A stretch of 26,005 nt of DNA from a virus (taxonomy: Duplodnaviria; Heunggongvirae; Uroviricota; Caudoviricetes), in the IMG/VR virus record IMGVR_UViG_2703718840_000008, one strand, 5' to 3'. Positions 3,165 to 22,001 of this stretch are shown here, piece by piece. The position numbers and the translations under genes are program-made. Every line of letters starts with the position of its first letter. Position 1 is the stretch's first letter. Below the pieces are notes generated by a model, which was given only the letters and a program-made list of their open reading frames with translations, was not told the DNA's origin and searched no databases.

Positions 3165-3878
3165 TCATTCCATTTCGAAATCATCAATCCTCACTTCAAG
3201 CTCCAGACTGGTCGTAAAACCATTATCCGGGCTTACGGTATGCGTCAGAGTCGTAATGGTCCATTCCGCATCATCTATCGGCTGTTTAAAGCCACTGACT
3301 TTCACTGGCATTTCCGTGTAGAGATCTGCCCGCCCTTCCGCCAGTTGTAACGAGAATGACGCAACGCCGCGTTGCAGGCGTTCCCACTGCATTTTCGCCG
3401 CTCGTTCGGCGTTGCTCCGGTTGGCATAAGTGCGATTAAGTACCAGCACGTTTTCATCCGTACCCACCAGGTAATCGCCCTGCTTCGCTTCCGGCTCTTT
3501 CTTCTGCTTCTTAGTCCTGCGCTTACGCTTCACCGTGGTGCTTTCTTTCTTCGCGGGTTCGCGGGTATGCAACCAGCTGGCAATTACGCCCGTGTAGGCT
3601 CCGCGATCTGCCAGGGTAAAGCGGTGACTGTCGCCGTCCTTACGTGTGATAGTGATAACCGGTAGTGGTTTACCGCTGGCGCTTTTACCCTGTCCCTGCC
3701 GGATGAATAACAGATTGCCATTTTTCACCGACGCAATAGCACCGTACTGGCGCGCCAGCCGCATCAGAAAACTGCCGTCACTCTCATTGGTCTGGTCTAT
3801 ATGCTCCACGGGTTTATCCGACAGGTCTTCACCCAATGCCATCTTCAGTTTGTGCCGCGCAGATATTTCCTTCACCAC
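3165..3878 (-). pseudogene. D: Tail protein D, C-terminal fragment (N-terminal ~150 aa missing)
   Basis: 237-aa ORF resembling the middle and C-terminal parts of P2 gpD (387 aa). The reading frame is closed by a stop at 3942-3944 and the track start at 3878 is a GTG; no gpU gene lies between it and the tape-measure ORF. Confidence 0.7.
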
Positions 3879-5836
3879 TTCCCCAACGGTGGTCTTGTGC
3901 CACGATTTTTCACGGCGGGTAGTTTTGCCTTTGCGGCCTCTTTACTGACAATGCCGAGTTTCTCCAGCAACCAGGAAACGCCGGATTTCAGGGAGTCCAG
4001 CGGATGCATGACCATATTCAGCCCTTCCGCCAGTGCCTCCCCGAATCGCCGCCCCATTGCCGCTGCACTCTGCAGTTCGGCAGAGGTCGACTTAACGGGC
4101 GTCAGCAGATCAGTAAACCAGCCCCACAGCGCCTGCACTTTGTCGCCAATCCACTGGAACACAGGCTTAAGCGGTTCGAACGCTGCACTGATGGGACCTG
4201 CCGCCGCTTTGAATCCTTCCACCACGCCACCAAGAAATGCGGTGATGGGTTGCCAGTATTTCCAGACAACCAGTGCCACACCCGCCAGTGCAGTAACCAC
4301 AAGACCTATCGGACTAAGCAGAGCACCTAACAGACCAGATACGGCATACAGGGCAACGCGCAACATCGCCAGCGGACCGGATGCCAGTACTCGCAGCACC
4401 GTGCCTGCGGCAGCCAGCCCGTCGCGTAGTGCTGCCAGTGGATTCATAAACATCACAGCAACCGCACGTAAACCGGATAATCCAGACCGCAACAGTGCAA
4501 CCGGCGCACCTGCTACAGTTTTCAGGACATTTCCCGTCAGTGATGCCGTGCGGCGCAAAGACGACAACGGAGCAGTAAGTAAGCCTGCGGCGTTGCCCGA
4601 TGAAGCAAGCCCGCGTCGCAGCACTGCCAGTGGAGCGCCAGCCAGCCAGGACAACGCGCTGCTGGTTCGTGTTACTGCTGCCGTAACGGAAGGTAACGTT
4701 TTGATGCCCAGCACAGAGAATCCCAGACGGATGACTGCCAGCGGCCCCAGCACTGCAGCCAGCGCCACAGCCAAGGTGCCGAGGCCTACGGTAACCGCAG
4801 CCACAACAGCCGCTACTTTCATCAGTGTGCCCGTCAGTTCCGGGTTAGCTTCGACCCAGCGACGCAACGCTCCCGTAACGCTTTTCACCGTGTACAGAAT
4901 ATCCATCAGCGGCTGGCGCAGCGTTTCGCCCAGGCTGCTGAAGGTATTCTGCGCTCCGGTTTTAACCAGCAACCACTGAGCAGAAAGTGAGTCCTTGTTG
5001 ATGTCGGATTCTTTCTGCATGGAACCGAGCGCATCATTGCCCGCTGTCAGTTTTAGCTGGCGCTGTAGTTCCGGCAGGTTGTTTGCCAGTTTCGCCGCGT
5101 CATCGCCAAACTCTTTACCAAACAACATGGTCATGGCAGACAGACGCTTGTCCTGCGGCAGTGCGTTCACCTTCTCCAGCACACGCTGGATAGTTCCCAT
5201 CGCATCCTTCGTCATCTGCTTTTCAATCACTTCAGGATTGAGTTTCAGCAGATTCATCCCTTCAAAGAAACTCTTGCTTTGCATGGTGGCAATGGACAAT
5301 TCACGCACCATCGCGTTTGCTGCACTGGCTGCAACCTCCGGCGCAGCGCCCAGTGTCAGAAAGGTGGAACCCAGCGCCGCCGCTTTACGATAATCCAGAC
5401 GATCAGCCACACCGCCCAGGCGTTGCATGACATCAATGATGTCTGCCCCTTTCGACAACCACTGACGGTAAGCTGTACCTCCGGTGAGTGCCGGACGTTC
5501 CCGCAGCCGGGTAATGTCAGCAGGCAAAGGAGTATCAGCCCAGCGGCGTAAATCCTCGTTCTCACGTTTCAGTTCCTCGATCCGGTGTTGTCGTTGTCTC
5601 AGCAGTGCGCTGGTCTGTTCTGCTTCGGCATAGAGCCGCGCCTGCTCCCGGTTATTGGTTTCAGTCAGAATGGACAGACCGATCAGCTGGCTGTTTTTCT
5701 TCGTCAGTTCCTGCGCTTTACTTTTCAGCGCCGCGCGCTGCGTTTCGATGGTGTGGCTGGCGCTGTTAAGCCGCCACGACTGCCAGCCCAGCGCAACGAG
5801 TGCCAGCGCCACCACTACTGCCAGCGCACGCGTCAT
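3872..5836 (-). pseudogene. Chimeric ORF: Rz/LysB-like i-spanin N-terminus fused in frame to the C-terminal part of tail tape-measure protein gpT
   Basis: First ~130 aa have a TM helix, coiled coil and the ENEDLRRWADTPLP motif typical of Rz/LysB spanins; the rest is Ala/Gly/Leu-rich repeat sequence typical of tape-measure proteins. Start overlaps the endolysin stop (ATGA). Sheath, tube, baseplate and fibre genes expected between lysB and T are absent. Confidence 0.7.
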
Positions 5837-7310: not shown

Positions 7311-7961
7311 TCAGCGGCTGTCATTGCGCAGTCTGCGCTCCAGCTGCTGTTTGTCTTTTTTCACGCCACAGCGGGGATCGAGCTGTAACGCATGGTTGAG
7401 ATGATTAAGGGCGGAAGCCGGATTGCTTTCACTCAGGACAGCGCCAATCGCTTTATGCAGACGCGCCCGTGACTGGTCCGGCATATCCAGACCGTCTGTC
7501 AGTTCCAGCGTCTGCAGCAACAGATCAGCATCAAAGCCGATGGCGGCAAGCATTGCGCTCTGCGCTGCGTCTGCCATTTCCTCTGCCAGCACGGTCTGCA
7601 CGTTGCGGTTACCCAGCGGCATCACCCAGCCATGACGCAGGGCATGACGCCCGATCTCCAGCGCCCCGGCATAATCTCCGGCATCAATGCGCCACAGCAT
7701 CACGTACATCAGTACGTCATCCTGCTGTGCGCCTCCGGCAGCCAGGACACCCTCCGCCCAGGCGGCGTACTTCGGCAGCAGCTCCACTTTGATTTCCGCT
7801 TTTTTGACCGTGGACTGAACGCCCTTGAGACGGCGGCGGTCTTCCGCCAGTTGCAGCAGCATCAGGTCATAGCCCGACGCGTGGCGAACACTGCCGCCCT
7901 CGCGGGCGGCCTGTTCAGCCTGAACGCGCAGGCGATGCTGCCGTGCGGGACTCAGGCTCAT
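7311..7961 (-). CDS. M: Terminase small (endonuclease) subunit gpM
   Basis: 216-aa ORF at the position of P2 gene M between N and L; start overlaps the region just after the N stop. Confidence 0.8.
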   Translation of the reverse strand: MSLSPARQHRLRVQAEQAAREGGSVRHASGYDLMLLQLAEDRRRLKGVQSTVKKAEIKVELLPKYAAWAEGVLAAGGAQQDDVLMYVMLWRIDAGDYAGALEIGRHALRHGWVMPLGNRNVQTVLAEEMADAAQSAMLAAIGFDADLLLQTLELTDGLDMPDQSRARLHKAIGAVLSESNPASALNHLNHALQLDPRCGVKKDKQQLERRLRNDSR

Positions 7962-10012: not shown

Positions 10013-11779
10013 ATGAACACCACACTGACACCCGCAGATCTCGATCCCCGTCGGCAGGCCATGCTGCTGTACTTTCAGGGATACCGCGTAGCCCGCATTG
10101 CTGAAATGCTGGGCGAGAAAGTTGCAACCGTTCACAGCTGGAAAAAACGCGACAAGTGGGGTGACTATGGGCCGCTGGACCAGATGCAGCTCACCACCGC
10201 CGCACGCTACTGCCAGCTCATCATGAAGGAGCACAAAGAAGGGAAAGATTTCAAAGAGATTGACCTGCTGGCGCGCCAGTCTGAGCGCCACGCGCGGATC
10301 GGCAAGTTTAACAATGGCGGCAACGAAGCCGACTTAAACCCTAACGTCGCCAACCGCAATAAAGGCCCACGCCGTCAGCCGGAAAAGAATGTTTTCACCG
10401 ATGAGCAGATTGAGAAGCTGGAAGAAATCTTCCATTCCTCCATGTTCAACTACCAGCGCCACTGGTGGGAAGCCGGAAAAACCAACCGCATCCGCAACCT
10501 GCTGAAGTCTCGCCAGATCGGCGCGACCTTCTATTTTGCCCGTGAAGCCCTGATTGACGCCCTGCTTACCGGACGCAACCAGATTTTCCTTTCTGCCAGT
10601 AAGGCTCAGGCCCACGTCTTTAAACAATACATCATCGACTTCGCCAAAGAAGTGGAGGTGGAGCTGAAAGGCGATCCGATGGTGCTTCCTAACGGGGCCA
10701 CGCTTTACTTCCTCGGCACCAATGCCCGCACGGCCCAGAGTTACCACGGCAACCTGTATCTGGATGAATATTTCTGGATACCGAAATTCCAGGAGCTGCG
10801 CAAAGTGGCTTCCGGTATGGCTATTCACAAAAAATGGCGACAAACCTATTTTTCCACGCCATCCAGCCTGACACACAGTGCTTATCCGTTCTGGTCCGGT
10901 GCGCTGTTCAACCGTGGGCGCAACAAAGCTGACAAGGTGGACATCGACCTGTCCCACAGCAATCTGGCCCCCGGCCTGCTGTGCGCAGACGGGCAATACC
11001 GCCAGATAGTCACCGTGGAAGATGCGGTGCGCGGCGGCTGTAACCTGTTCGACCTCGACCAGTTGCGCATGGAGTACAGCCCGGACGAATACCAGAACCT
11101 GCTGATGTGTGAGTTCGTGGACGATCTCGCGTCCGTGTTCCCGCTCAGCGAGCTGCAGGCGTGCATGGTGGACAGTTGGGAAGTCTGGACCGACTTTCAT
11201 GCACTGGCGCTGCGCCCGTTTGGCTGGCGCGAAGTGTGGATCGGTTATGACCCGGCAAAAGGTACGCAGAACGGCGACAGTGCCGGATGCGTGGTGGTGG
11301 CTCCGCCAGCCGTGCCGGGTGGTAAGTTCCGCATTCTTGAGCGTCACCAGTGGCGCGGGATGGACTTCCGCGCCCAGGCTGACGCCATCAAAAAACTCAC
11401 CGAACAGTACAACGTTACGTATATCGGTATCGACTCGACCGGCGTTGGTCACGGGGTTTATGAGAACGTGAAAGCGTTCTTTCCTGCCGTCCGGGAGTTT
11501 GTCTATAACCCCAATGTTAAAAATGCCTTGGTACTCAAGGCCTACGACATTATCAGCCACCGCCGTCTGGAGTTTGACGCCGGACACACTGACATTGCGC
11601 AGTCATTCATGGCAATCCGTCGCGCAACCACCGCCAGCGGCAACCGCCCGACCTATGAAGCCAGCCGCAGCGAAGAAGCCAGCCACGCCGATCTGGCCTG
11701 GGCAACAATGCACGCACTGTTTAACGAACCGCTGCAGGGCGAATCCGCCAATACCAGCAATATTGTGGAGATTTTTTGA
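10013..11779 (+). CDS. P: Terminase large (ATPase) subunit gpP
   Basis: 588-aa ORF; length and position match P2 gpP (about 590 aa); stop overlaps the Q start (TGATG). Confidence 0.9.
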   Translation: MNTTLTPADLDPRRQAMLLYFQGYRVARIAEMLGEKVATVHSWKKRDKWGDYGPLDQMQLTTAARYCQLIMKEHKEGKDFKEIDLLARQSERHARIGKFNNGGNEADLNPNVANRNKGPRRQPEKNVFTDEQIEKLEEIFHSSMFNYQRHWWEAGKTNRIRNLLKSRQIGATFYFAREALIDALLTGRNQIFLSASKAQAHVFKQYIIDFAKEVEVELKGDPMVLPNGATLYFLGTNARTAQSYHGNLYLDEYFWIPKFQELRKVASGMAIHKKWRQTYFSTPSSLTHSAYPFWSGALFNRGRNKADKVDIDLSHSNLAPGLLCADGQYRQIVTVEDAVRGGCNLFDLDQLRMEYSPDEYQNLLMCEFVDDLASVFPLSELQACMVDSWEVWTDFHALALRPFGWREVWIGYDPAKGTQNGDSAGCVVVAPPAVPGGKFRILERHQWRGMDFRAQADAIKKLTEQYNVTYIGIDSTGVGHGVYENVKAFFPAVREFVYNPNVKNALVLKAYDIISHRRLEFDAGHTDIAQSFMAIRRATTASGNRPTYEASRSEEASHADLAWATMHALFNEPLQGESANTSNIVEIF

Positions 11780-12807
11780 TGGGTAAGAGTGAGAAGAACC
11801 GCGCTGCGGCGACGAAACAGATCCAGCTTAAAAGCCAGACTACAGCCGAAGCATTCAGCTTCGGCGATCCCGTTCCTGTTCTGGACCGCCGAGAACTGCT
11901 GGACTATGTGGAATGCGTACAGATGGACCGTTGGTATGAGCCGCCCGTCAGCTTTGACGGACTGGCGCGCACCTTCCGCGCTGCCGTGCATCACAGTTCC
12001 CCGATTGCAGTAAAGTGCAACATTCTGACCAGTACCTATATCCCTCATCCGCTGCTCAGCCAGCAGGCTTTTTCGCGTTTTGTGCAGGACTATCTGGTAT
12101 TTGGTAACGCCTACCTGGAGAAACGCACGAACCGATTCGGTGAAGTTATCGCCCTTGAGCCTGCGCTGGCAAAATACACCCGACGCGGGTTAGACCTGGA
12201 TACCTACTGGTTTGTGCAATACGGTATGACAACCCAGCCGTATCAGTTCACGAAAGGCAGCATTTTTCATCTGATGGAACCGGACATCAACCAGGAGATC
12301 TACGGCCTGCCCGGTTATCTTTCTGCCATTCCGTCAGCCCTGCTCAACGAGTCCGCCACGCTGTTCCGCCGCAAGTATTACATTAACGGTAGCCATGCAG
12401 GCTTCATCATGTATATGACCGATGCCGCGCAGAACCAGGAAGATGTGAACAACCTCCGCAACGCAATGAAAAGCGCCAAAGGCCCTGGCAACTTCCGCAA
12501 TCTGTTTATGTACTCGCCTAACGGCAAAAAGGACGGACTTCAGATCATCCCGTTGTCAGAAGTCGCAGCGAAAGATGAATTTCTTAACATCAAGAACGTG
12601 AGTCGTGATGACATGATGGCCGCGCATCGTGTTCCGCCACAGATGATGGGGATTATGCCGAATAATGTTGGGGGTTTTGGGGATGTGGAGAAGGCTAGTA
12701 AGGTTTTTGTGATAAATGAATTAATTCCTTTGCAAAAACGATTTATGGAAATAAACGCATGGCTCGGGGAGAAACTTATAGAATTTTCTCCATATGAGCT
12801 TAACTAA
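11779..12807 (+). CDS. Q: Portal protein gpQ
   Basis: 342-aa product from the ATG at 11779 (track ORF begins at a TTG 3 nt upstream); matches P2 gpQ in size (about 344 aa) and position. The last ~40 codons are markedly AT-rich. Confidence 0.88.
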   Translation: MGKSEKNRAAATKQIQLKSQTTAEAFSFGDPVPVLDRRELLDYVECVQMDRWYEPPVSFDGLARTFRAAVHHSSPIAVKCNILTSTYIPHPLLSQQAFSRFVQDYLVFGNAYLEKRTNRFGEVIALEPALAKYTRRGLDLDTYWFVQYGMTTQPYQFTKGSIFHLMEPDINQEIYGLPGYLSAIPSALLNESATLFRRKYYINGSHAGFIMYMTDAAQNQEDVNNLRNAMKSAKGPGNFRNLFMYSPNGKKDGLQIIPLSEVAAKDEFLNIKNVSRDDMMAAHRVPPQMMGIMPNNVGGFGDVEKASKVFVINELIPLQKRFMEINAWLGEKLIEFSPYELN

Positions 12808-12815
12808 AATATTAG

Positions 12816-12845
12816 TTGCCAGTACCGTATTGTTGCTACTGGCAA
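12816..12845. terminator. Hairpin between convergent Q and the RloC-like gene (possible bidirectional terminator)
   Basis: 9-bp inverted repeat ttgccagta (12816-12824) / tactggcaa (12837-12845) with 12-nt loop; no strong T-run, so weak. Confidence 0.3.
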
Positions 12846-12856
12846 TTGCAATAAAA

Positions 12857-15193
12857 TTACAAATATGTATTGCTATGTAGAGATGTGTTTATTCCATCTT
12901 CTATCTCAATTTTTGACGAAGCATACTCATCATTCGCACTATCATCAATATCAAACTCATCTTGTAGATGAAGTGACTCATTTAACGGTTTATAAAACTC
13001 ACCCATCATCATTTTGTAATGGGCAGTATGCTCACTACACTCAAATATCTTCTGAAAAACAATTAAATATTTTTGCACAGACTCCGTATCTAAATTCATA
13101 TAAAGATCATCACCTGCAAAATGAGAACCATCATTAATCCATGACACTAAAGATTTAAATATGATTTTTTCATCACCATAAAAATGACACTCAAGCTTCC
13201 TAATATCCATCCCTCCTAATATCTTAAAGTAATTCTCCAAAATCCTTCGCATTGTATTTTGTATAGTATTATTATTAATATCTGTTCTTCTCAATTCGCA
13301 CCAGAGCAAATCATAAGACGTTTTTATTGGGTTTGATTCGCACTTTTCAAGATATGAGACCTTCCCTTTTTTCCTTACAATCCAAAAAGTCTCCTCTTTC
13401 ATTGCTTGATTACCGGATCTTTTAGTATTAAAAGTCAACTCTTTATGAAAATAAATATTATGCGTAAGGAATATAATTTGCTTAATATTTCCTTCATCCT
13501 TACGAACATCCTCCATTAAATCTTTAATCAACGAACTTACAATAAACAGAATATCACTATCTAAACTTGAAATTGGATCATCAAATACTACAACACGATC
13601 ATCTAAAACACCTGATGCATTATCACTCCCTCTAACAAGACTATAAAAATACAAAAAAGTGATAAATGTCTTTTCTCCCTCGCTAAGAGTTGTACGAGCA
13701 TTATCTCCACTATCTCTCACTATCATATAATGCTTTTTATCTTCGGAGGGTTTTAAGTAAAAATTTTTGAAGCCATAAGAATCCAGAATCTTGTTAATTT
13801 TTGTAATAGTTGGAAGAGTACTGGTTTTATTAGACTCAATTGCCTCAATAGCCGAAGCATTTAACATTAACTTCTTTTTGTCTTCCTCTAACCCAGATTT
13901 AAGTCCTTGTAACCTCCTACTAAATTTATCAGATTCGCTACGGTAAGAAGTTATTTCAGACTTTAACTCCACCTTTACGATATATGCCCATATCTGATTA
14001 GAAAGATTACTAACCTCTACCTTTCTATTACTGTGTATTTTGTTATTATTATCTATCAATAGATTTGAATCATTCAAAAAAGAAATAAAATCATCAACAA
14101 CTTCACTTAAGTCACTAAAATGAACTGATTCACTTAAAAAATTGCGTTTGTTTTTTGCTAATTCAAAATTCTTGTTTAATTCAGATAATACTATCTTAGC
14201 CTTATCCTCAAATACTTCATAATTTATGAATGGAGATTTAATCGCCCTTATATCATCTATCGCCTGCAAGATATTATTAAGTTGATGTTCATATTGTAAA
14301 ACCAATGCATCGATTTCTCTTTTTTTTAACTCATATGTTTTATCAAAATATGATGATAGATTATCAAATATATTATCATTTACATCCTGCTGGCAGAATG
14401 GGCACTTGGGATTAGATTTACTGAAATATGTTAAACCTTCCTTAACCCAATCACTGTTATTGAGCATTGTAATTAAGTCTGAAACACTAACGTCTTTTTT
14501 CCCTAGAATACGCTCACTCCAAATCTCCCTACTCAAAATATCATCTATCCCATTGAAGGATGGAATTGTAATTGATACATGTGATGTCAATTCAGTAGAA
14601 AAAACAATTTTTGCTTTCTCAATTAGCTCTGCTATTGAGCAAACTTCTGATGTGTTATTTTCATACTCAGCCAACACTCTAGCTTTAAATTTTTCACTAC
14701 TATTCCTTAATCCCTCAAAAGCCTTTGAGAACACATTATCATGTTTTATTTTTTGCTTCCAACATGAATCTTTAAAAGATTTTTCATGGTCTTCGATTTG
14801 TTTAACAACGCCTAATATATTATCACCACCATCTATTAGCTTTTCCTTTGCTATAATAGATTCTATTAGCTTATTTTTTTCTTCTTCAAGAGATATTAGT
14901 TTCTCTTCATCCTCCTTAAGATCGCTACCAAGGGTAAATACACCTTTAATTTTATCTTGACTAAAATTTCTTTCAACAAAATCTTTATTATATACGTAGC
15001 TTATTAAAGATATATTATTTTTCCATTTAATCGGACATGTTGGATATTGTTCAGGGTCATTAATAATTTTACTTATAGTTGTTTTACCTGCACCATTAGC
15101 TCCATATAAATAGTTAAATTTAGAAAGCCCATGTAAAAGCTGAGTAGGGCCATTATATGAGCCTACTTTGTCAATAACTACCTCTTCAATCAT
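12857..15193 (-). CDS. RloC/PrrC-like ABC-type ATPase (AAA_13-like) with Rad50-type CxxC zinc hook; candidate anticodon nuclease / abortive-infection protein
   Basis: 778-aa ORF, ~30% GC. N-terminal Walker A GANGAGKTT; long predicted coiled-coil region containing CPFC; ABC signature-like LSEGEK; Walker B VVVFDDPISSLD; H-loop-like FLTHN; C-terminal ~200 aa with an RRILE (R-x3-E) motif and downstream His residues, reminiscent of the PrrC/RloC nuclease triad. GAGGA RBS upstream. Confidence 0.6.
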   Translation of the reverse strand: MIEEVVIDKVGSYNGPTQLLHGLSKFNYLYGANGAGKTTISKIINDPEQYPTCPIKWKNNISLISYVYNKDFVERNFSQDKIKGVFTLGSDLKEDEEKLISLEEEKNKLIESIIAKEKLIDGGDNILGVVKQIEDHEKSFKDSCWKQKIKHDNVFSKAFEGLRNSSEKFKARVLAEYENNTSEVCSIAELIEKAKIVFSTELTSHVSITIPSFNGIDDILSREIWSERILGKKDVSVSDLITMLNNSDWVKEGLTYFSKSNPKCPFCQQDVNDNIFDNLSSYFDKTYELKKREIDALVLQYEHQLNNILQAIDDIRAIKSPFINYEVFEDKAKIVLSELNKNFELAKNKRNFLSESVHFSDLSEVVDDFISFLNDSNLLIDNNNKIHSNRKVEVSNLSNQIWAYIVKVELKSEITSYRSESDKFSRRLQGLKSGLEEDKKKLMLNASAIEAIESNKTSTLPTITKINKILDSYGFKNFYLKPSEDKKHYMIVRDSGDNARTTLSEGEKTFITFLYFYSLVRGSDNASGVLDDRVVVFDDPISSLDSDILFIVSSLIKDLMEDVRKDEGNIKQIIFLTHNIYFHKELTFNTKRSGNQAMKEETFWIVRKKGKVSYLEKCESNPIKTSYDLLWCELRRTDINNNTIQNTMRRILENYFKILGGMDIRKLECHFYGDEKIIFKSLVSWINDGSHFAGDDLYMNLDTESVQKYLIVFQKIFECSEHTAHYKMMMGEFYKPLNESLHLQDEFDIDDSANDEYASSKIEIEDGINTSLHSNTYL

Positions 15194-15326
15194 CCTCTAA
15201 TCCTCAAAAAACAGATTAATCCTATCAAATCAATGATAATAGAAGACATTACTTACCTAATTACAAGGTGATCATTTATACAGCTGTGAATAAATCAGGC
15301 TAATCATCTATTTGTCATAACGCGCG

Positions 15327-15345
15327 CTCGTATCCCCGCCACGCC
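15327..15345. other. Candidate cos site (cohesive-end sequence) of the P2/186-like phage
   Basis: Reverse complement reads GGCGTGGCGGGGATACGAG followed by CGCGCG, matching the conserved GGCG(A/T)GGCGGGGA start of the P2 and 186 cohesive ends as I recall them; lies in a GC-normal island between two AT-rich cargo cassettes, oriented toward Q. Confidence 0.5.
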
Positions 15346-15897
15346 TGCCCGCTTTATGCAGTGATTTTCATGCACCTGCATGACATAAGCGAAAGCCCGC
15401 CAGTTCTGGGGGGCCTCAGCAAAAACGATCCTCAAACGATCATGCAATTTCATGCAGCATAGTCATGCACAGCCAAGAGAAGTGAAAATCCGTATCTGAA
15501 TGACCACTTAAAAAACGAAATATACGGGTTTACAAACATGGAGGTTCACTGTGAGCGAAGAGCGGAAGTTGCCTTAATTAGGTTACATGGGGGACAAATG
15601 TTACTAGCATGATTATGCGGGATACTTACAATACCACGCCTTAATTGCTTTGTTATCCCACCAGAAAGTCATGGAGCCGCAACTGATAAGAAAATTGTTG
15701 TAAAAGTGCCAGTTGGTTACTCTGAATTTCTGCTTAGCCAGGAGAGTGCCTGCGTTGTCAGCGAATGCGTAAGTTGATCCTTCAATGCAGAAATAGTTCA
15801 ATTTATTAAACAACACTCCTGGCGGGATTAACGCCGCATCTATAATGCGTGAGAGTGTGCATGCGCAATTTCAGCAAAAAAATTGAAAATAGCGCTA

Positions 15898-16869
15898 CTA
15901 ACTTCCCTTTATTTTTAGTTCGTTAAAAATATCTTCGATTACCAATCCATTTTTAATTAAATGCTGCACAATATTTTCATATTCTTTGAAATTGTCAATA
16001 TGCAAGCCATGATCTTTTTCTTTAGCAATTCTCGTGATCACATGTACGCTATCTATATAATCAATCTTATTTTTAAGAGCATTGAGCAAACTTATACTTG
16101 GATTTAAAGTTGAGATTAGTTTACCAAACTCGGTTTGTAACTCTTTGGATTGATGAGTATTAATATAATCTTCAATAAAAGCATCAAAATCTCCTTGCAA
16201 CTCAACTTTAAGGTTTGCTATATCCTTCATAATATTTTCTAACTCAGAAGAGTATGGCCGACCATGTTTAAAATCGAATAAAAAAAGATTTGCTTTCTCA
16301 ATACATTCGCAAATATAAAAAACTGTATAAAGGGAATATTTTTGCTTAACTTTTAATTTTCCATAGGCGTAGTGAACCAAAAGATGCTTAGCATTAATAA
16401 CATTTTTATTTTTTGAAAGTTGATTGTTAGTTGCAGGCGGATAAATTACCACATCAACATTATCTAAATTTTGAAAAGTTTTTAAAATAAGAGCCTCAAC
16501 CTTATTCCAATCGAGGCCCCCATTACCACAGCCTAAAGGTGGTATTGATATTGATGTAATTTTTTTTTCATCTATAATTTTTGCTAAAGATTCAAGGCCT
16601 TGCGAGATAAAATCATATGTTGATTTTTTTCTCCAACTATCTTTAGTGGGAAAGTTTACAATTATTTTTCCCTTTTCCTCTACAATTAAAACCTGTCCAA
16701 TTTTCATTGTACCAGTGGCGCATGCTCTCTTATAAACTTCGAAATTATAGGGAAAAGTTTCTTTAAAAGCCAAAGCAATACCCTTTCCCATGACTCCTTG
16801 GCAGTTTACAGCATTCACAAGAGCTTGCGATGTAGAGTTTAGAAGATTTCCGCTTGCATACTTAATCAT
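15898..16869 (-). CDS. darG: DarG-like antitoxin (N-terminal macrodomain, ADP-ribosyl hydrolase)
   Basis: 323-aa ORF; N-terminal ~150 aa show macrodomain hallmarks (GNLL, ALVNAVNC, GVMGKGIALAF, IPPLGCGNGGL); starts 4 nt after the darT stop, giving the toxin-then-antitoxin operon order. Confidence 0.75.
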   Translation of the reverse strand: MIKYASGNLLNSTSQALVNAVNCQGVMGKGIALAFKETFPYNFEVYKRACATGTMKIGQVLIVEEKGKIIVNFPTKDSWRKKSTYDFISQGLESLAKIIDEKKITSISIPPLGCGNGGLDWNKVEALILKTFQNLDNVDVVIYPPATNNQLSKNKNVINAKHLLVHYAYGKLKVKQKYSLYTVFYICECIEKANLFLFDFKHGRPYSSELENIMKDIANLKVELQGDFDAFIEDYINTHQSKELQTEFGKLISTLNPSISLLNALKNKIDYIDSVHVITRIAKEKDHGLHIDNFKEYENIVQHLIKNGLVIEDIFNELKIKGS

Positions 16870-16873
16870 AGAA

Positions 16874-17455
16874 TTAGAACATATAAGTGTTGATCGTTAT
16901 CAATATACTTAATCCTTGTTGTTTTATCAACCCTTCAACATATTTTTTTTCGTTATCATTTTTGACAAAGATGCAATGGAAATTTTTCGGCTCGACCGTT
17001 ACACTTGATAAACACTCAGCCATACATACAGATTTGCATTCTGCATTTTTATAATCCCTTATATTCATTAGCTCCCAGTCAATTTGGGCCATTCCTTGTT
17101 CATAATCTAAGAGGTCTATAACAGAACTGGTGGATAATGGATGTTTAGGTATAACTTTCCAACCATTTTCTTTGGCAAATGCCCGACAAACCGAAATAAT
17201 ACAAAATGATTTTTCCTTATGATCTTTCAGGACTCTTCCATCAAATGGATTCTTAGTAAAGAAATGAAAAGGAACCATTGTTTGCAAATTTAATGCTTCG
17301 CGACCTGTTATTATTTCACCGTCGGCCACATCAACAAACTCACCTTTTACTGATGCACGAGATCTTAATCCTGTGTCTAAAATACTAGGTAGATTATCCA
17401 TACATGTTAAATGATAGAGAAGATACTGATCTTCAATTCTTTTCCTTTCGCTCAT
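16874..17455 (-). CDS. darT: DarT-like toxin (DUF4433 ssDNA ADP-ribosyltransferase)
   Basis: 193-aa ORF with YLLYHLTCMDNLPSIL N-terminal motif, MVPFHFF, and a glutamate in CMAECL, matching the DarT family pattern as I recall it; AGGA-type RBS upstream. Confidence 0.72.
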   Translation of the reverse strand: MSERKRIEDQYLLYHLTCMDNLPSILDTGLRSRASVKGEFVDVADGEIITGREALNLQTMVPFHFFTKNPFDGRVLKDHKEKSFCIISVCRAFAKENGWKVIPKHPLSTSSVIDLLDYEQGMAQIDWELMNIRDYKNAECKSVCMAECLSSVTVEPKNFHCIFVKNDNEKKYVEGLIKQQGLSILITINTYMF

Positions 17456-17922
17456 TTCAACTCATCCTTTCAAATTCGTAAGTCTATTTATAGAACCAAA
17501 CCTCACTGACAGTCAAGGTTTTTAAGATTATTCACATTGCCTTCTGCCTGTCGATCTAATTATTTTCGATTTTTTGGGTATGATTTGGCATTATTGATAT
17601 ACAAGGTAAAACAATTTTTCAGTAGTTTACTGACGCTGAGTGATTACGATTGCTAGCTTGGGAAGGCAATGGCCATAGTGCATGTGCTGAACAAAATGAA
17701 AAAGGCAGGGACATTCTGGTCTTCCCCATGAGTATGGATTTTCATTGCATCGATGGGTATGAGCAACGTCCCCTTGATTAAGGATAGCGTTGCATCGTCC
17801 CGTTGAACTCACAACACAAATCGTACAATCACTTATCAAAATGGCCGCCCACCTTACGCCTCGTTTCACTCGCTACCCAAACTAGCCCCCATCAGAATGA
17901 ATCCTCCTGGGGGCAACGTTTC

Positions 17923-18156
17923 TTAATGCAGCCAGCTGTCGTCTTCCCACACCTTCTGCATAATTTTCATCACTTGTTTTCTTTCTTCATCCAGTTGCAG
18001 TCCGGTCAGTTCCACACCGTTAGAGCTACCTTTACGGATACGAATTACCGTTTTGGGATATAGGGGGCGCAGATTGCGGTAAAGCTCGGATTCAAGGGCG
18101 TCCAGGGTAGACTGGCTAATCTTCTGCTCTTTATCGATCATTATTTCAATGCGCAT
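17923..18156 (-). CDS. DinI-like protein (equivalent to the C-terminal domain of 186 antirepressor Tum)
   Basis: 77-aa product from the ATG at 18156 (MRIEIMIDKEQKIS...ESELYRNL...KIMQKVWEDDSW) resembling DinI; GAGGTG RBS overlaps the stop of the upstream ORF. The 101-aa track ORF is an upstream extension. Confidence 0.7.
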   Translation of the reverse strand: MRIEIMIDKEQKISQSTLDALESELYRNLRPLYPKTVIRIRKGSSNGVELTGLQLDEERKQVMKIMQKVWEDDSWLH

Positions 18157-18508: not shown

Positions 18509-20923
18509 TTAATACAGGTTTCGCCACTTATCATCTTCCTGCAAACGCTGGTTCCGATAGAAGATACGCAGGCCTGCTCCTGACGGAATACTGCCGCCGC
18601 GAAGGAGTAAATCGACCTCTTTCTCGCTGCCATCAAATCCTCTGGACTTCAGTTCATAGACGAGCTGCTGTCGTTGATGGTCTGTAATTCGCTGTTTGTA
18701 GTCTCTACGCCGTTTCGGCTTCACCAGGCGTAACCTTGCTGCCAGTTCCCGGCGCTCTTTTTTGCTCATACTGTGCAGGTAATCGTGCAACTCCTTGTCA
18801 TCCATGCGGGTAATGTCCGTTCTGGTGTCCCCATCAGCTGATTTGTCTTTCCCTTGTTGGTTCAAATTTTCAGCAAGGGGATAGTTATTGCCACGAGTCC
18901 AAGGGGCGCAAGCGCCCTGTTCGGCTGCCGCCTCCTGAACGTCAACGGCCTTACGAACCATTTTCCACTTCACTGCATGAGTGCAGATCTTGCCCTCTGC
19001 AATGGGTGACCAGATGCCATAAATACGAATACCGTGATCGCCATAGGCGGTCGGCTCTTCGTTAATTTCATAAGCTGTTCTGATAAGGTGATATTTGCGG
19101 GGAACCAGCACGCCGCCCTGCTTCATGATGTAGGTCGCAAAACAGCCAGCATCAGCAGCAGCCAGGATGGCATCAAGGCGTGGGTTATCCAGTACCGGCG
19201 CACCTGCTTTTATGTCACCCTGCTGCCTTGCCGCCTGACCAGCCAGCAATCGCAGTTCACGATAAGCCTGACGCCCCGGAATACCAAAGAAGCGGAATTG
19301 CTGAACACGATGCAGAGACGCCCAGGCATTCACGTATTCAGCGTTATCACGCAGGGATTTACCCGTTTCCTTGCTGATCTCGCCAGCCAGACCACGCCCG
19401 TCAATGTTCTTACTGATATATTTCGCGATGTAGCTTGTCGGCGTTCCTTTGCGCGGGTTAATCAACTCAGACTTAAAGCGCGGCCCCGTGTTATTGCCCA
19501 GCTCCTCGCGGTCTTCACGGATGGCAAACTTACGCAGTAATGCAGTGATGGCGCGGCGGTCTTTTTTGCGCATAAAACACAACAGGTGCCAGTGAACTGT
19601 ACCGTCATGATGTGGCTCAGCCACCCGCACGCCATACCACCGCAATCCGGCTTTGTGCATCGCCTTACGAAATGCAGCAAACATGCCGACCAGATAATCA
19701 CTGCTTTGTCTTACCGTCGCATTTGTCCAGGTCGGGTTGGGCCTGCCGTTATTTAGCGTGGAATGGAAACGTGACGGACAGGTGATGGTGTAGAAAACGG
19801 CGCAGTCACCGCGCATTTCCGCGATAAGCTCCAGGCCTTTAACACAGGCCATCATCTCATTGCGGCGATGCGCAGGGTTGCTGCTGCTGGCGTTTACCAC
19901 ATCCTCCATGTCCAGCGTGTCGCCGTCTTCGTTCACCAGTTCATGAGAACGAAAAAACTCCAGCGACTTACGGCGCTGCTCACGTTTATGCATCACGGCT
20001 TCATAGCTGACATAGGGAGATGCTTTTTTGCTGACCAGGCAGACAGCACGCAACTGCTCTTCCCGCCATTCGCAACGCATCTTCCATAATTTCCGGTACC
20101 ACCAGTCAGCGCACAACATACGCGCCAGCGAACCCGGAATGAGTTCATAGGGCACGGGTTTACGGCGGTTTCTTTTCCGGCGGAGTTGCTCAAACGCAGG
20201 CGGTATGACATCCAGTCGCAGGGTTTCTGCTGCCACCTTTTCCCATGTCTTGCGGATTTCTTCAGGCTTAACGTCATCGGTGGCATACAAATCGCCACAA
20301 GCTGCATCAAGGCACATGCTCATATGCGCAGCAACAAGGGTGGACAGGCGTTTCACCTGATCCTGACTCATTTCAGGCAGAATCAGCAGGCCGTCCAGCC
20401 CTTCATGGCTTGCCATAAAGCGAAAAGAAGTGGATAGCTGACTGTCGCGTACATGCTCCAGCCGTTCCAGACATGGCTTAATCGTCTCACGCAAATAGCG
20501 GGAATAAGCCTTTGGCCTGCCAAGGCTGCTGAAGTATTCAATACGTTGCATCAGCGGCTTGCTGATATGGGAAGGCTGGGCATTGACGTCCGCCAGAATG
20601 ACCATATCTGGATTAAAACGCTGCTGCTCATGCGCCAGCTTTGCCCGACTAATGAGCTTATCCTGCTCCATTTCGCGCTGGACAGGATCACGGGATTCAT
20701 TAAAGAAATAACGCTCCCAGACCTGATCACTCAGTGCCTCGCGGCGCAGCTGTTCCTGCTCGTTATCGGCAGCGTACAGAGTGATCAGGTTTGAAAGCGC
20801 AGAAACCGGCGCAACTTCCGCCGGGTCCAGATAAGGGTTAATGGCCTTTTTCGGGCTGTTCCATGAGAACGATGCGGCAGCCTCGTTAAAGCCGCAGCAG
20901 TTGTTCATATCGGCATGGCTCAT
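18509..20923 (-). CDS. A: Replication initiation protein gpA (rolling-circle initiator)
   Basis: 804-aa ORF at the position and scale of P2 gene A (761 aa), downstream of dam and the early genes; start overlaps the dam stop (ATGA). Confidence 0.85.
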
Positions 20924-21777
20924 GCACGTACTCCGTACACGGCAGAACTATCCACGCCACGCGAATAATCAAATCCCACCCAGCAGCGCGGCCCGGAAAC
21001 AGCAATGATTTCTGTTGCTGATTTACCCTCGCCAGCTGCCACACCGATGCTGCGTTTTGCCTTGATGTAGTGGTGAGTAAAATTGCGATACAGCGAACGG
21101 ATCAGGGATGTGTCACTGTTAGAAACAATGACCGGATGTCCTTCTGATGACCGATGTTCAAGAACAGATGCCAGGTGATACTGGTCATCTTCAGTGAAAC
21201 CATCAGTGTGATAGCCGGAAAACTTACCGTCATACGGCGGATCGCAATACACCACATCCCCCGCCTTCAACATCGCCAGCGTTTCATCAAAGCTGGCGCA
21301 GATAAACGTTGCTCGCTGGGCCTTTTCTGCAAATGCGCGAATTTCTTTTTCAGGGAAATACGGATTTTTATAATTACCGTAGGGAATGTTGAAATGCCCG
21401 CTCTTGTTATAGCGACATAAACCACGGTAACCGTGACGATTGAGATACAGGAAATATACCGCTTTCATGAAATCAGTAATTTCAGTGGAGTAATTAAACT
21501 CCTGCCTTATGTTGTAATAAGCCACCTCCCTGTTTGCGATCTCAAATAAAACTCTGGCGCGAGATATAAACGATTCACAATCAGCAGCAACCTTTTTATA
21601 GAGGTTGATTAAATCAGGATTAATATCCGCAACCAGATAGCTGGGGTAATCCGTCTCCATCATCACAGCACAGGAACCCGCGAAAGGTTCAACCAGTCGC
21701 GGGCCAGCAGGAAGGTGTTTTTTCAGTTCGGACATAATGGCGGTTTTATTTCCCGCCCATTTCAGGATGGTGCTCAT
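20920..21777 (-). CDS. dam: DNA adenine methyltransferase (Dam-like, orphan)
   Basis: 285-aa product from the ATG at 21777 ([11 protein letters not shown]...) with the catalytic DPPY motif; no adjacent restriction endonuclease gene; start overlaps the stop of the upstream zinc-finger ORF. Confidence 0.85.
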
Positions 21778-22001
21778 ACAGCACCTCCGTTGTAATGTTT
21801 GCCTTTCAGCTCTGCGATTTCCTGACAGGTAATGCAAAGCTGCACCCCCGGAATGGCACGGCGGCGTGCTGGCGGAATTGGCGCTTCACACTCAACGCAA
21901 AGCACGCGGGACACGCCCGGCGTTTTGGCACGGGCAGCACGGATATGACGTTGGCGTTCTTCTTCAACTCGCTGCTGTACGAGATCCATTGCATCAGCCA
22001 T
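21774..22001 (-). CDS. TraR/DksA-family zinc-finger protein
   Basis: 75-aa ORF with a C-terminal C4 zinc finger (CVECEAPIP...CITCQ) typical of phage TraR-like proteins; stop-start overlap with neighbours. Confidence 0.7.
   Translation of the reverse strand: MADAMDLVQQRVEEERQRHIRAARAKTPGVSRVLCVECEAPIPPARRRAIPGVQLCITCQEIAELKGKHYNGGAV

Follow-up and report, generated by a model that had tools for sequence, protein, structure and literature searches.

A P2-family cos site, recognised by homology, between two cargo cassettes of an Escherichia coli prophage

The cohesive ends of phages P2 and 186 and of the satellite P4 were determined experimentally, as stated in later papers that cite Padmanabhan (1974) and Wang (1973), and a 55-bp cos core is credited to Ziermann and Calendar (1990) in PMC3931495 and PMC5694545. 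The interval between cos and the portal gene (Q in P2, W in 186) has in addition been regarded as a place where foreign genes accumulate. [quoted passage not shown] Experiments have also used a 186 phage into which a CmR cassette had been built "between cos and tW" (PMC7708051). The survey of Rousset (2022; PMC9122126) defined one gpA–gpQ hotspot, comprising the "genes between gpQ and gpA" and lying "adjacent to the cos site", and a 2026 follow-up in NAR retains this single-hotspot definition, in which the two sides of cos are not separated. Among the closest relatives of the locus described below is SEN8, an isolated phage that was sequenced and reported to have "a cos site (ggcgtggcggggatacgag)" identical to the sequence found here (PMC5427200).

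The stretch of DNA analysed in this work, hereafter the window, comprises the 26,005 nucleotides of IMG/VR record IMGVR_UViG_2703718840_000008. It is 100% identical to sequence of E. coli 2018-11-3CC (NZ_AP021895.1), where it lies inside a P2-family prophage. The genes follow the order tail and baseplate, lysis, L-M-N-O (minus strand), P-Q (plus strand), a variable region, A, dam, the regulatory genes (CII, Fil, CI) and int; the remainder of the prophage extends back to ogr, and this gene order is typical of P2 prophages (Table 1). Genes of the P2 type for structure, terminase, replication, lysis and regulation are all annotated as intact. The regulatory module is 186-like (CI/CII/Fil, with a DinI/tum-like gene at 17923–18156; in phage 186 itself LexA represses tum, which is SOS-inducible) and the packaging module is Fels-2/SEN8-like, with the gpP homologue of the window being identical to that of SEN8 at 586 of 588 residues and to that of Fels-2 at 520 of 535 (97%). 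A search for attachment sites gave only a 14-bp direct repeat (ATGGGTTTTTTGTT) with copies 36,160 bp apart, and because this repeat is weak the length of the prophage (~36.2 kb) is approximate; P2, at 33.6 kb, and SEN8, at 35.2 kb, are both shorter. Two further genes of the window may be mentioned. A DUF6216 family gene (3694–4500, plus strand) lies between the baseplate V and virion-morphogenesis genes, on the opposite strand to them, and is probably another small cargo insertion within the late operons. A gene for a D12-class Dam methyltransferase (20920–21837) overlaps the end of gene A, as it does in Fels-2 and SEN8.

Table 1. Features of the cos region and of the genes that surround it, in coordinates of the window
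Feature	Position	Strand	Basis or remark
Terminase endonuclease (small) subunit, gpM homologue	7311..7961	-	RefSeq "terminase endonuclease subunit"
Terminase large (ATPase) subunit, gpP homologue	10013..11779	+	Pfam Terminase_6N, Terminase_6C, Terminase_5
Portal gene, homologous to Q of P2 and W of 186; 3' end towards cos	11779..12807	+	Pfam Phage_portal, RefSeq
Inverted repeat TTGCCAGTA-N12-TACTGGCAA	12816..12845		Separates the converging genes Q (stop at 12807) and RloC-like (stop at 12857)
RloC-like ATPase, 778 aa	12857..15193	-	Pfam AAA_13; candidate model PDC-S06 of PADLOC; direction of transcription cos to Q
55-bp P2/P4 cos core equivalent	15320..15374	-	29 bp of right arm + 19-mer + (C/T)GCGCGC
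CGCGCG, all that is conserved between the cut and Q	15321..15326	-	Cargo directly after
19-nt cohesive-end sequence GGCGTGGCGGGGATACGAG	15327..15345	-	Identical to SEN8 nt 1-19, "putative cos site"
Predicted staggered terminase nicks	Top: 5' of G15345; bottom: 15327/15326	Top -, bottom +	Inferred from 186 and P2 annotations
Right arm of cos, facing gene A; conserved, carries TGCAT(G) repeats	15346..15470	-	Candidate terminase recognition sites
IS903/IS5-family transposase remnant	15631..15817		Between cos island and DarG
DarG (15898-16869) and DarT (16874-17455), toxin-antitoxin defence pair	15898..17455	-	Pfam Macro, DarT
Replication endonuclease gpA, outer border of right-hand cargo	18509..20923	-	Pfam Phage_GPA 1.4e-127

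The sequence-only reading of this stretch had proposed a candidate cos site on the minus strand, where a cohesive-end start of the P2/186 type is followed by CGCGCG. Read from 15345 to 15327 the minus strand is indeed GGCGTGGCGGGGATACGAG, followed by CGCGCG at 15326 to 15321. Its first 13 nt agree at all 13 positions with the left cohesive end of 186 (GGCGTGGCGGGGAAAGCAT, nt 1–19 of the record, annotated as cos) and at 12 of 13 with that of P2 (GGCGAGGCGGGGAAAGCAC). The window has both the GGCG(A/T)GGCGGGGA start and the GC-rich 19 nt by which P2-family cohesive ends are recognised. The resemblance extends well beyond the motif, as approximately 150 bp (15321–15471) align to 88–92 records of P2-family phages at 85–93% identity, with a best E value of 6e-58. 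The circular cos junctions of P2, 186, P4 and SEN8 were rebuilt from the ends of their records and aligned with Fels-2 and the window. All six share the right arm on the A-gene side, with its TGCAT(G) blocks aligned, and in each of them a proximal stretch ...TGCAT-AAAA-C...AAAG-GGGC(A/G) is followed by the 19-mer and then by (C/T)GCGCGC. Left of (C/T)GCGCGC no alignment was found among the six, and P2 and P4 also diverge from each other at this point. The stretch over which P2 and P4 can be aligned amounts to 29 + 19 + 7 bp, that is 55 bp, which fits the "55-bp core" attributed to Ziermann and Calendar; the limits given for the core in Table 1 are our own delimitation, taken from this stretch. 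Within it the window is identical to Fels-2 at 52 of 55 positions, to SEN8 at 51, to 186 at 42, to P4 at 41 and to P2 at 40.

The exact 13-mer GGCGWGGCGGGGA occurs a single time in the window, where two other matches were found, each with two mismatches, against a chance expectation of 0.88. The remaining 19.5 kb of the prophage contained no second cos-like site when searched with the 13-mer at up to two mismatches, the one match with two mismatches being at chance level. The cos-like sequence is thus single-copy in the whole ~36-kb prophage, from ogr to int. Two of the checks named in the earlier reading, the alignment with cos regions of P2, 186 and their relatives and the search for a better cos elsewhere in the prophage, therefore came out on the side of the candidate. 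The possibility that the motif is a chance GC-rich sequence, with the true cos located elsewhere, had only the shortness of the originally reported motif to recommend it, and it is refuted by the 150-bp homology, the multiple alignment, the uniqueness of the 13-mer in the window together with its absence from the rest of the prophage, and a position between Q and A, which is the expected one; we give it next to no credence. The 55-bp core, the Q–A location, the intact genes for gpP and gpM and the single copy are all what membership in the P2-family cos sites entails. On grounds of homology, 15321–15470 is cos and forms a sharply bounded conserved island of ~150 bp. We hold it to be very probable that this is the cos site of a complete-looking ~36-kb P2-family prophage of E. 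coli, and that the cargo on both of its sides represents a common arrangement.

The right arm contains five copies of TGCAT and one of ATGCA in 126 bp, compared with 0.30 expected from the frequency in the window itself, and by analogy with relatives these repeats may be the binding sites of the terminase. No experimentally mapped termini were found for the cos allele of the window (ATACGAG), the cos of SEN8 being labelled "putative", and for this reason the cut positions are predicted from those of P2, 186 and P4. The RefSeq record of SEN8 opens with the 19-mer and ends at the base equivalent to 15346 of the window, which corresponds to linearisation at the predicted nick. The last six bases of the overhang track the type of terminase across 119 IMG/VR loci, with gpP being 84–100% identical to that of the window in loci with ATACGAG and 62–70% identical in those with AAAGCAC, AAAGCAT or ATAGCAT. 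One locus (L091) is an apparent recombinant, having a gpA 82% identical to that of the window (Fels-2-like), a gpP only 66% identical and the allele ATAGCAT. Its cos allele, in this single instance, goes with the terminase side and not with the replication side.

In IMG/VR, 41 loci have the same 19-mer as the window, and 44 stretches of species-representative genomes have the same 25-mer. Across the 41 loci, ungapped identity to the window at each position is at least 80–90% from -125 to +24 and random outside this range, giving sharp edges at about -125 and +25, with conservation on the Q side dropping to random at +25/+26. At +25 (15320) the window carries a T, against a C in at least 90% of the relatives. 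Several other loci (L072, L079, L090 and L113) also carry T here, beside different flanking sequences. The junction in L072 reads CGCGCGT, with the same last base as in the window.

Cargo begins directly beyond this edge. As the sequence-only reading had stated, a RloC-like gene separates cos from the 3' end of Q. Its product matches Pfam AAA_13 over the full length (1.6e-163) and the PADLOC candidate model PDC-S06 (8e-266), and the PADLOC model for PrrC shows weak similarity to its C-terminal part (4.3e-11, residues 458–704). An RloC anticodon nuclease would have a Rad50/SMC-like ATPase head, with a zinc hook in a long coiled-coil insert, and a PrrC-type anticodon-nuclease domain with its catalytic residues at the C terminus. 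The translation contains a Walker A motif (GANGAGKT) and CPFC at residues 264–267; a CXXC motif is reportedly the zinc hook of RloC (Davidov and Kaufmann 2008). Phage homologues at 26% identity are annotated as "translation-disabling ACNase". "RloC-like" therefore seems a reasonable label for this 778-aa predicted ATPase, membership of RloC itself being unproven, and an anti-phage role may be proposed from family assignment only, as PDC-S06 is a candidate system that has not been validated. A scan for consensus promoters and terminators across 12700–16000 gave counts not above those of shuffled sequence, and it found no sigma-70 promoter for this gene at 15194–15320. The inverted repeat between the RloC-like gene and Q was read by eye, the scan missing loops of more than 8 nt; it is possibly a bidirectional terminator in place of tQ/tW.

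What the cassette has displaced can be seen from four relatives with an empty site (L160, L165, L170 and L173). These have a spacer of 172–182 bp (~175 bp after the core), which starts with CGCGCGCAACGGGGTGAAATGG and, ahead of the stop codon of Q, has a terminator rich in GC. With these relatives the window has no more than the first 25 nt in common and their spacer is wholly absent from it, so the entire spacer, terminator included, has been replaced. The cassette is joined to cos in the same manner, at 97–99.5% identity, in ~20 different E. coli strains among those listed and in one IMG/VR contig, a recurrence which suggests spread. A tblastn search of INPHARED revealed no isolated phage with this RloC-like cassette, only homologues at 25–29% identity in unrelated phages, and packaging with this exact left flank is unproven for that reason.

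To judge from its sequence this copy of cos is likely to function, with three points giving rise to doubt: the T at +25, the genome of ~36.2 kb and the lack of an isolate with the cassette. On these points one might argue for a cos by descent that no longer works, either because the prophage is defective or oversized or because replacement up to +25, with its change from C to T, impaired packaging. We regard this as quite improbable. The T that departs from the consensus C is the same base that recurs beside other flanks, and a length of ~36.2 kb has to be set against the 35.2 kb of SEN8, which makes particles (PMC5427200). The cassette may be missing from the isolates in INPHARED, but its junction with cos is the one maintained at 97–99.5% in the ~20 listed strains and the contig. 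The IS remnant nearby could likewise be taken as a sign of decay, although the gene complement is annotated as intact, the core is still identical to SEN8 and Fels-2 at 51–52 of 55 positions and the terminase differs from that of SEN8 at two residues of 588.

The earlier reading had described the interval between cos and Q as an unusual insertion point, giving a distance of only about 100 bp in P2. Neither part of this description holds. The distance from cos to the Q stop is 167 bp in P2 as measured, and 176 bp in 186, while across the relatives the interval spans 157 to 4407 bp. It exceeds 300 bp in 47 of the 88 IMG/VR loci that have both cos and the end of Q present, and is at least 1 kb in 38 of them. 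Among loci with the cos allele of the window it measures at least 555 bp in 23 of 27 IMG/VR viral contigs, and among carriers of the exact 25-mer at least 600 bp in 22 of 27 GTDB species representatives, which include Klebsiella, Enterobacter, Citrobacter, Raoultella, Serratia and Pantoea. An occupied interval is consequently the majority state in this clade, and Fels-2, SEN8 and the literature agree in this respect.

The contents of the occupied intervals (>300 bp, IMG/VR loci) are diverse, with 74 ORFs falling into 61 protein clusters, and 69 of the 74 are transcribed from cos towards Q, as is the RloC-like gene. PADLOC models for defence or candidate-defence systems match 15 of 20 representatives of this cargo; the matches include retron I-C and II-A, Lamassu LmuB, DRT2 (Drt2), RT_UG36, bSEFIR, PDC-M03, a Septu-like (PtuA-like) protein and a PD-T4-4-like protein, and retrons of the Ec67 type with RT-Toprim are also present in the cos–Q interval of relatives. 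One locus (L158) keeps the empty-site flank and yet has 1557 bp before Q, indicating an insertion further from cos. The interval has the properties of a hotspot, as the spacer is swapped with cos and Q intact and its content varies among otherwise collinear relatives. Cargo on either side of cos, also in the stretch that leads to the portal gene, is therefore a common arrangement that has been known since 1996.

On the A side of cos the cargo consists of DarG and DarT, which were identified with PADLOC (9.8e-81 and 2.2e-36, respectively) and lie 4 bp apart on the same strand, giving the adjacent pair of a DarT ADP-ribosyltransferase and a macrodomain DarG by which DarTG systems are defined. 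The placement of cos between two cargo cassettes, with the RloC-like gene on the Q side and DarTG on the A side, was thus correctly recognised from the sequence. Moving rightwards from the island, ~88 bp common to some relatives are followed by the IS remnant and then by DarG-DarT. The IS remnant begins 160 bp from the island, is 73–74% identical to IS903 transposase copies in P7, HK022 and SJ46, and overlaps a RefSeq pseudogene, "IS5/IS1182 family transposase, incomplete", at 15634–15741; further E. coli genomes also have it together with the DarTG cassette.

The two cassettes are for the most part found apart. Matches of complete E. coli genomes to 12700–17600 break at 15318–15321 on one side and at ~15470 or 15558 on the other. 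The RloC-like cassette with cos and a different right side was found in ~20 of the E. coli records listed, cos with DarTG and a different left side in ~8, and the RloC-like gene together with DarTG in only 2, each of 4,557,772 bp. From this separate occurrence it follows that the cos island is a conserved anchor between cassettes that exchange independently. A hotspot made up of two independently swapping halves, split by cos, is a small addition to the known picture.

A stronger claim would be that the published gpA–gpQ hotspot is really two hotspots, with their inner borders matching the edges of the cos island (+25 and about -125) to the base and with exchange caused by cohesive ends that are cut by the terminase or injected. 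This we consider doubtful. It is equally unlikely, in our judgement, that the sharp borders and two-sided cargo arise from cohesive ends starting cassette exchange, as opposed to ordinary homologous recombination, although recombination at terminase-cut or injected ends was raised as a speculation by Rousset (2022; PMC9122126). In a large number of independent loci cargo starts at precisely +25/+26 and at ~-126, which would suit such an origin, but selection for packaging alone predicts the same conserved island, and some loci retain the further ~88 bp rightwards (with the break at 15558 and not at 15470) while in others, such as L158 with its 1557 bp, the insertion lies further from cos. The independent assortment of left and right cassettes, and the P4-like satellites, which have the same core and a hotspot abutting the same left side of cos, would also be expected of it; on the other hand, 150 bp of homology together with the Q and A flanks suffices for RecA or phage recombination. 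Were the two-hotspot geometry true, the chromosome in the virion would have defence cassettes at each of its physical ends.

A number of loci carry a cos but no Q, A or P. The suggestion that these are artefacts was rejected for eight of them, as they encode a homologue of P4 psu ~165 bp from cos and are therefore P4-like satellites. Five IMG/VR loci (L008, L052, L082, L084 and L100) share the allele GGCGTGGCGGGGAGAGCAT; all five are without Q, A and P, and their psu homologue ~165 bp from cos marks them as P4-like satellites. This allele was present in no Q-containing locus among the 119 loci listed, and within this set it looks satellite-specific. Three other IMG/VR loci (L061, L072 and L099) have the allele ATACGAG and no match to Q, A or P. 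Of these, L061 is a contig of 11.9 kb, which is satellite-sized, and no psu homologue was detected in it with the P4 fragment.

The exact 25-mer GGCGTGGCGGGGATACGAGCGCGCG is also found in non-enterobacterial hosts, with five copies in one Chitinimonas genome and three in another (Chitinimonas sp. BJB300 and C. taiwanensis DSM 18899; loci L132–L135, L138, L156, L159 and L167). A detectable Q homologue (70%) lies beside only one of these copies, and they may represent multiple P2-like elements or satellites. In a locus of Pasteurella testudinis DSM 23072 (L148) GGCGTGG directly follows the 25-mer, as if the start of the cohesive end were repeated; the right arm of this locus is without the proximal TGCAT block and Q (60% identity) is at 239 bp.

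Taken together with what is known of P2, 186 and P4, a tentative scheme for the locus can be put forward. By homology, the gpM/gpP terminase would recognise an asymmetric site, chiefly the ~125-bp right arm with its TGCAT repeats, and would nick the two strands at a distance of 19 bp (15345/15346 and 15326/15327), giving 5' overhangs of GGCGTGGCGGGGATACGAG and its complement. Nothing left of +25 is conserved or would be needed, and the spacer between cos and the portal gene would on that account be free for replacement by accessory genes. In this prophage the spacer has been replaced in full, together with its terminator, by the gene for the RloC-like ATPase, with DarTG on the other side, and the chromosome of the virion, if the prophage is packaged, would carry its two defence cassettes at its two physical ends. 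The cassettes exchange independently, with the cos island as their common anchor.

With this result the prophage has an assigned packaging site and predicted ends for its virion DNA. The finding matters little beyond correct annotation, except that it corrects the impression of cargo between cos and the portal gene as exceptional. For the mining of hotspots in P2-like phages, it is best to record on which side of cos, left or right, a cassette lies, since exchange on one side is independent of the other, and the cos island (-125 to +25) provides a precise anchor for extracting cassettes. For the engineering of transducing particles of the P2/186 type, the variation among natural loci suggests that sequence to the left of +25 can be dispensed with.

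Among the nearest described systems is SEN8 (Felsduovirus SEN8, NC_047753), which has the identical 19-mer and a right arm 92% identical to that of the window. Between cos and the portal gene SEN8 carries ~2.2 kb of cargo encoding a hypothetical protein and an HNH endonuclease. It differs from the window in having other cargo on both sides, a C at +25, a Salmonella host and a cos that is putative rather than mapped. The Fels-2 prophage of S. Typhimurium LT2 (NC_010463) has the same cos allele as the window, with a 565-aa ORF (STM2723.1) between cos and Q and DinI/tum-like genes on the A side; its cargo genes are different, with neither DarTG nor the RloC-like gene being present.

Phage 186 resembles the window in the TGCAT-repeat right arm and the GCGCGC left flank, but its spacer of 176 bp is empty, the last six nt of its overhang are AAGCAT as against TACGAG in the window, and its terminase is ~63% identical. 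It is in 186-related E. coli prophages that the retrons Ec67 and Ec86 are inserted as accessory DNA between cos and the W/Q terminator, the same position that is held here by the RloC-like gene. P2 has a homologous cos with defence cargo (old/tin) directly beside it, although on the A side only. The gpA–gpQ hotspot as defined by Rousset (2022) includes the locus of the window. The satellite P4 shares the TGCAT right arm and has a psu–int hotspot with variable cargo (the gop/beta/cII position) right after CGCGCGC, which places this cargo, like the RloC-like gene of the window, to the left of cos; unlike the prophage, P4 is a satellite without terminase or portal genes and its psu lies ~165 bp right of cos. 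Finally, PMC5694545 describes foreign genes between cosL and the gpQ homologue in phiCTX (ctx) and phiRSY1 (ORF1–4) and calls the left arm a "hot spot"; these are distant P2-like phages of Pseudomonas and Ralstonia, and their cargo is related to virulence or to T6SS and is not anti-phage.
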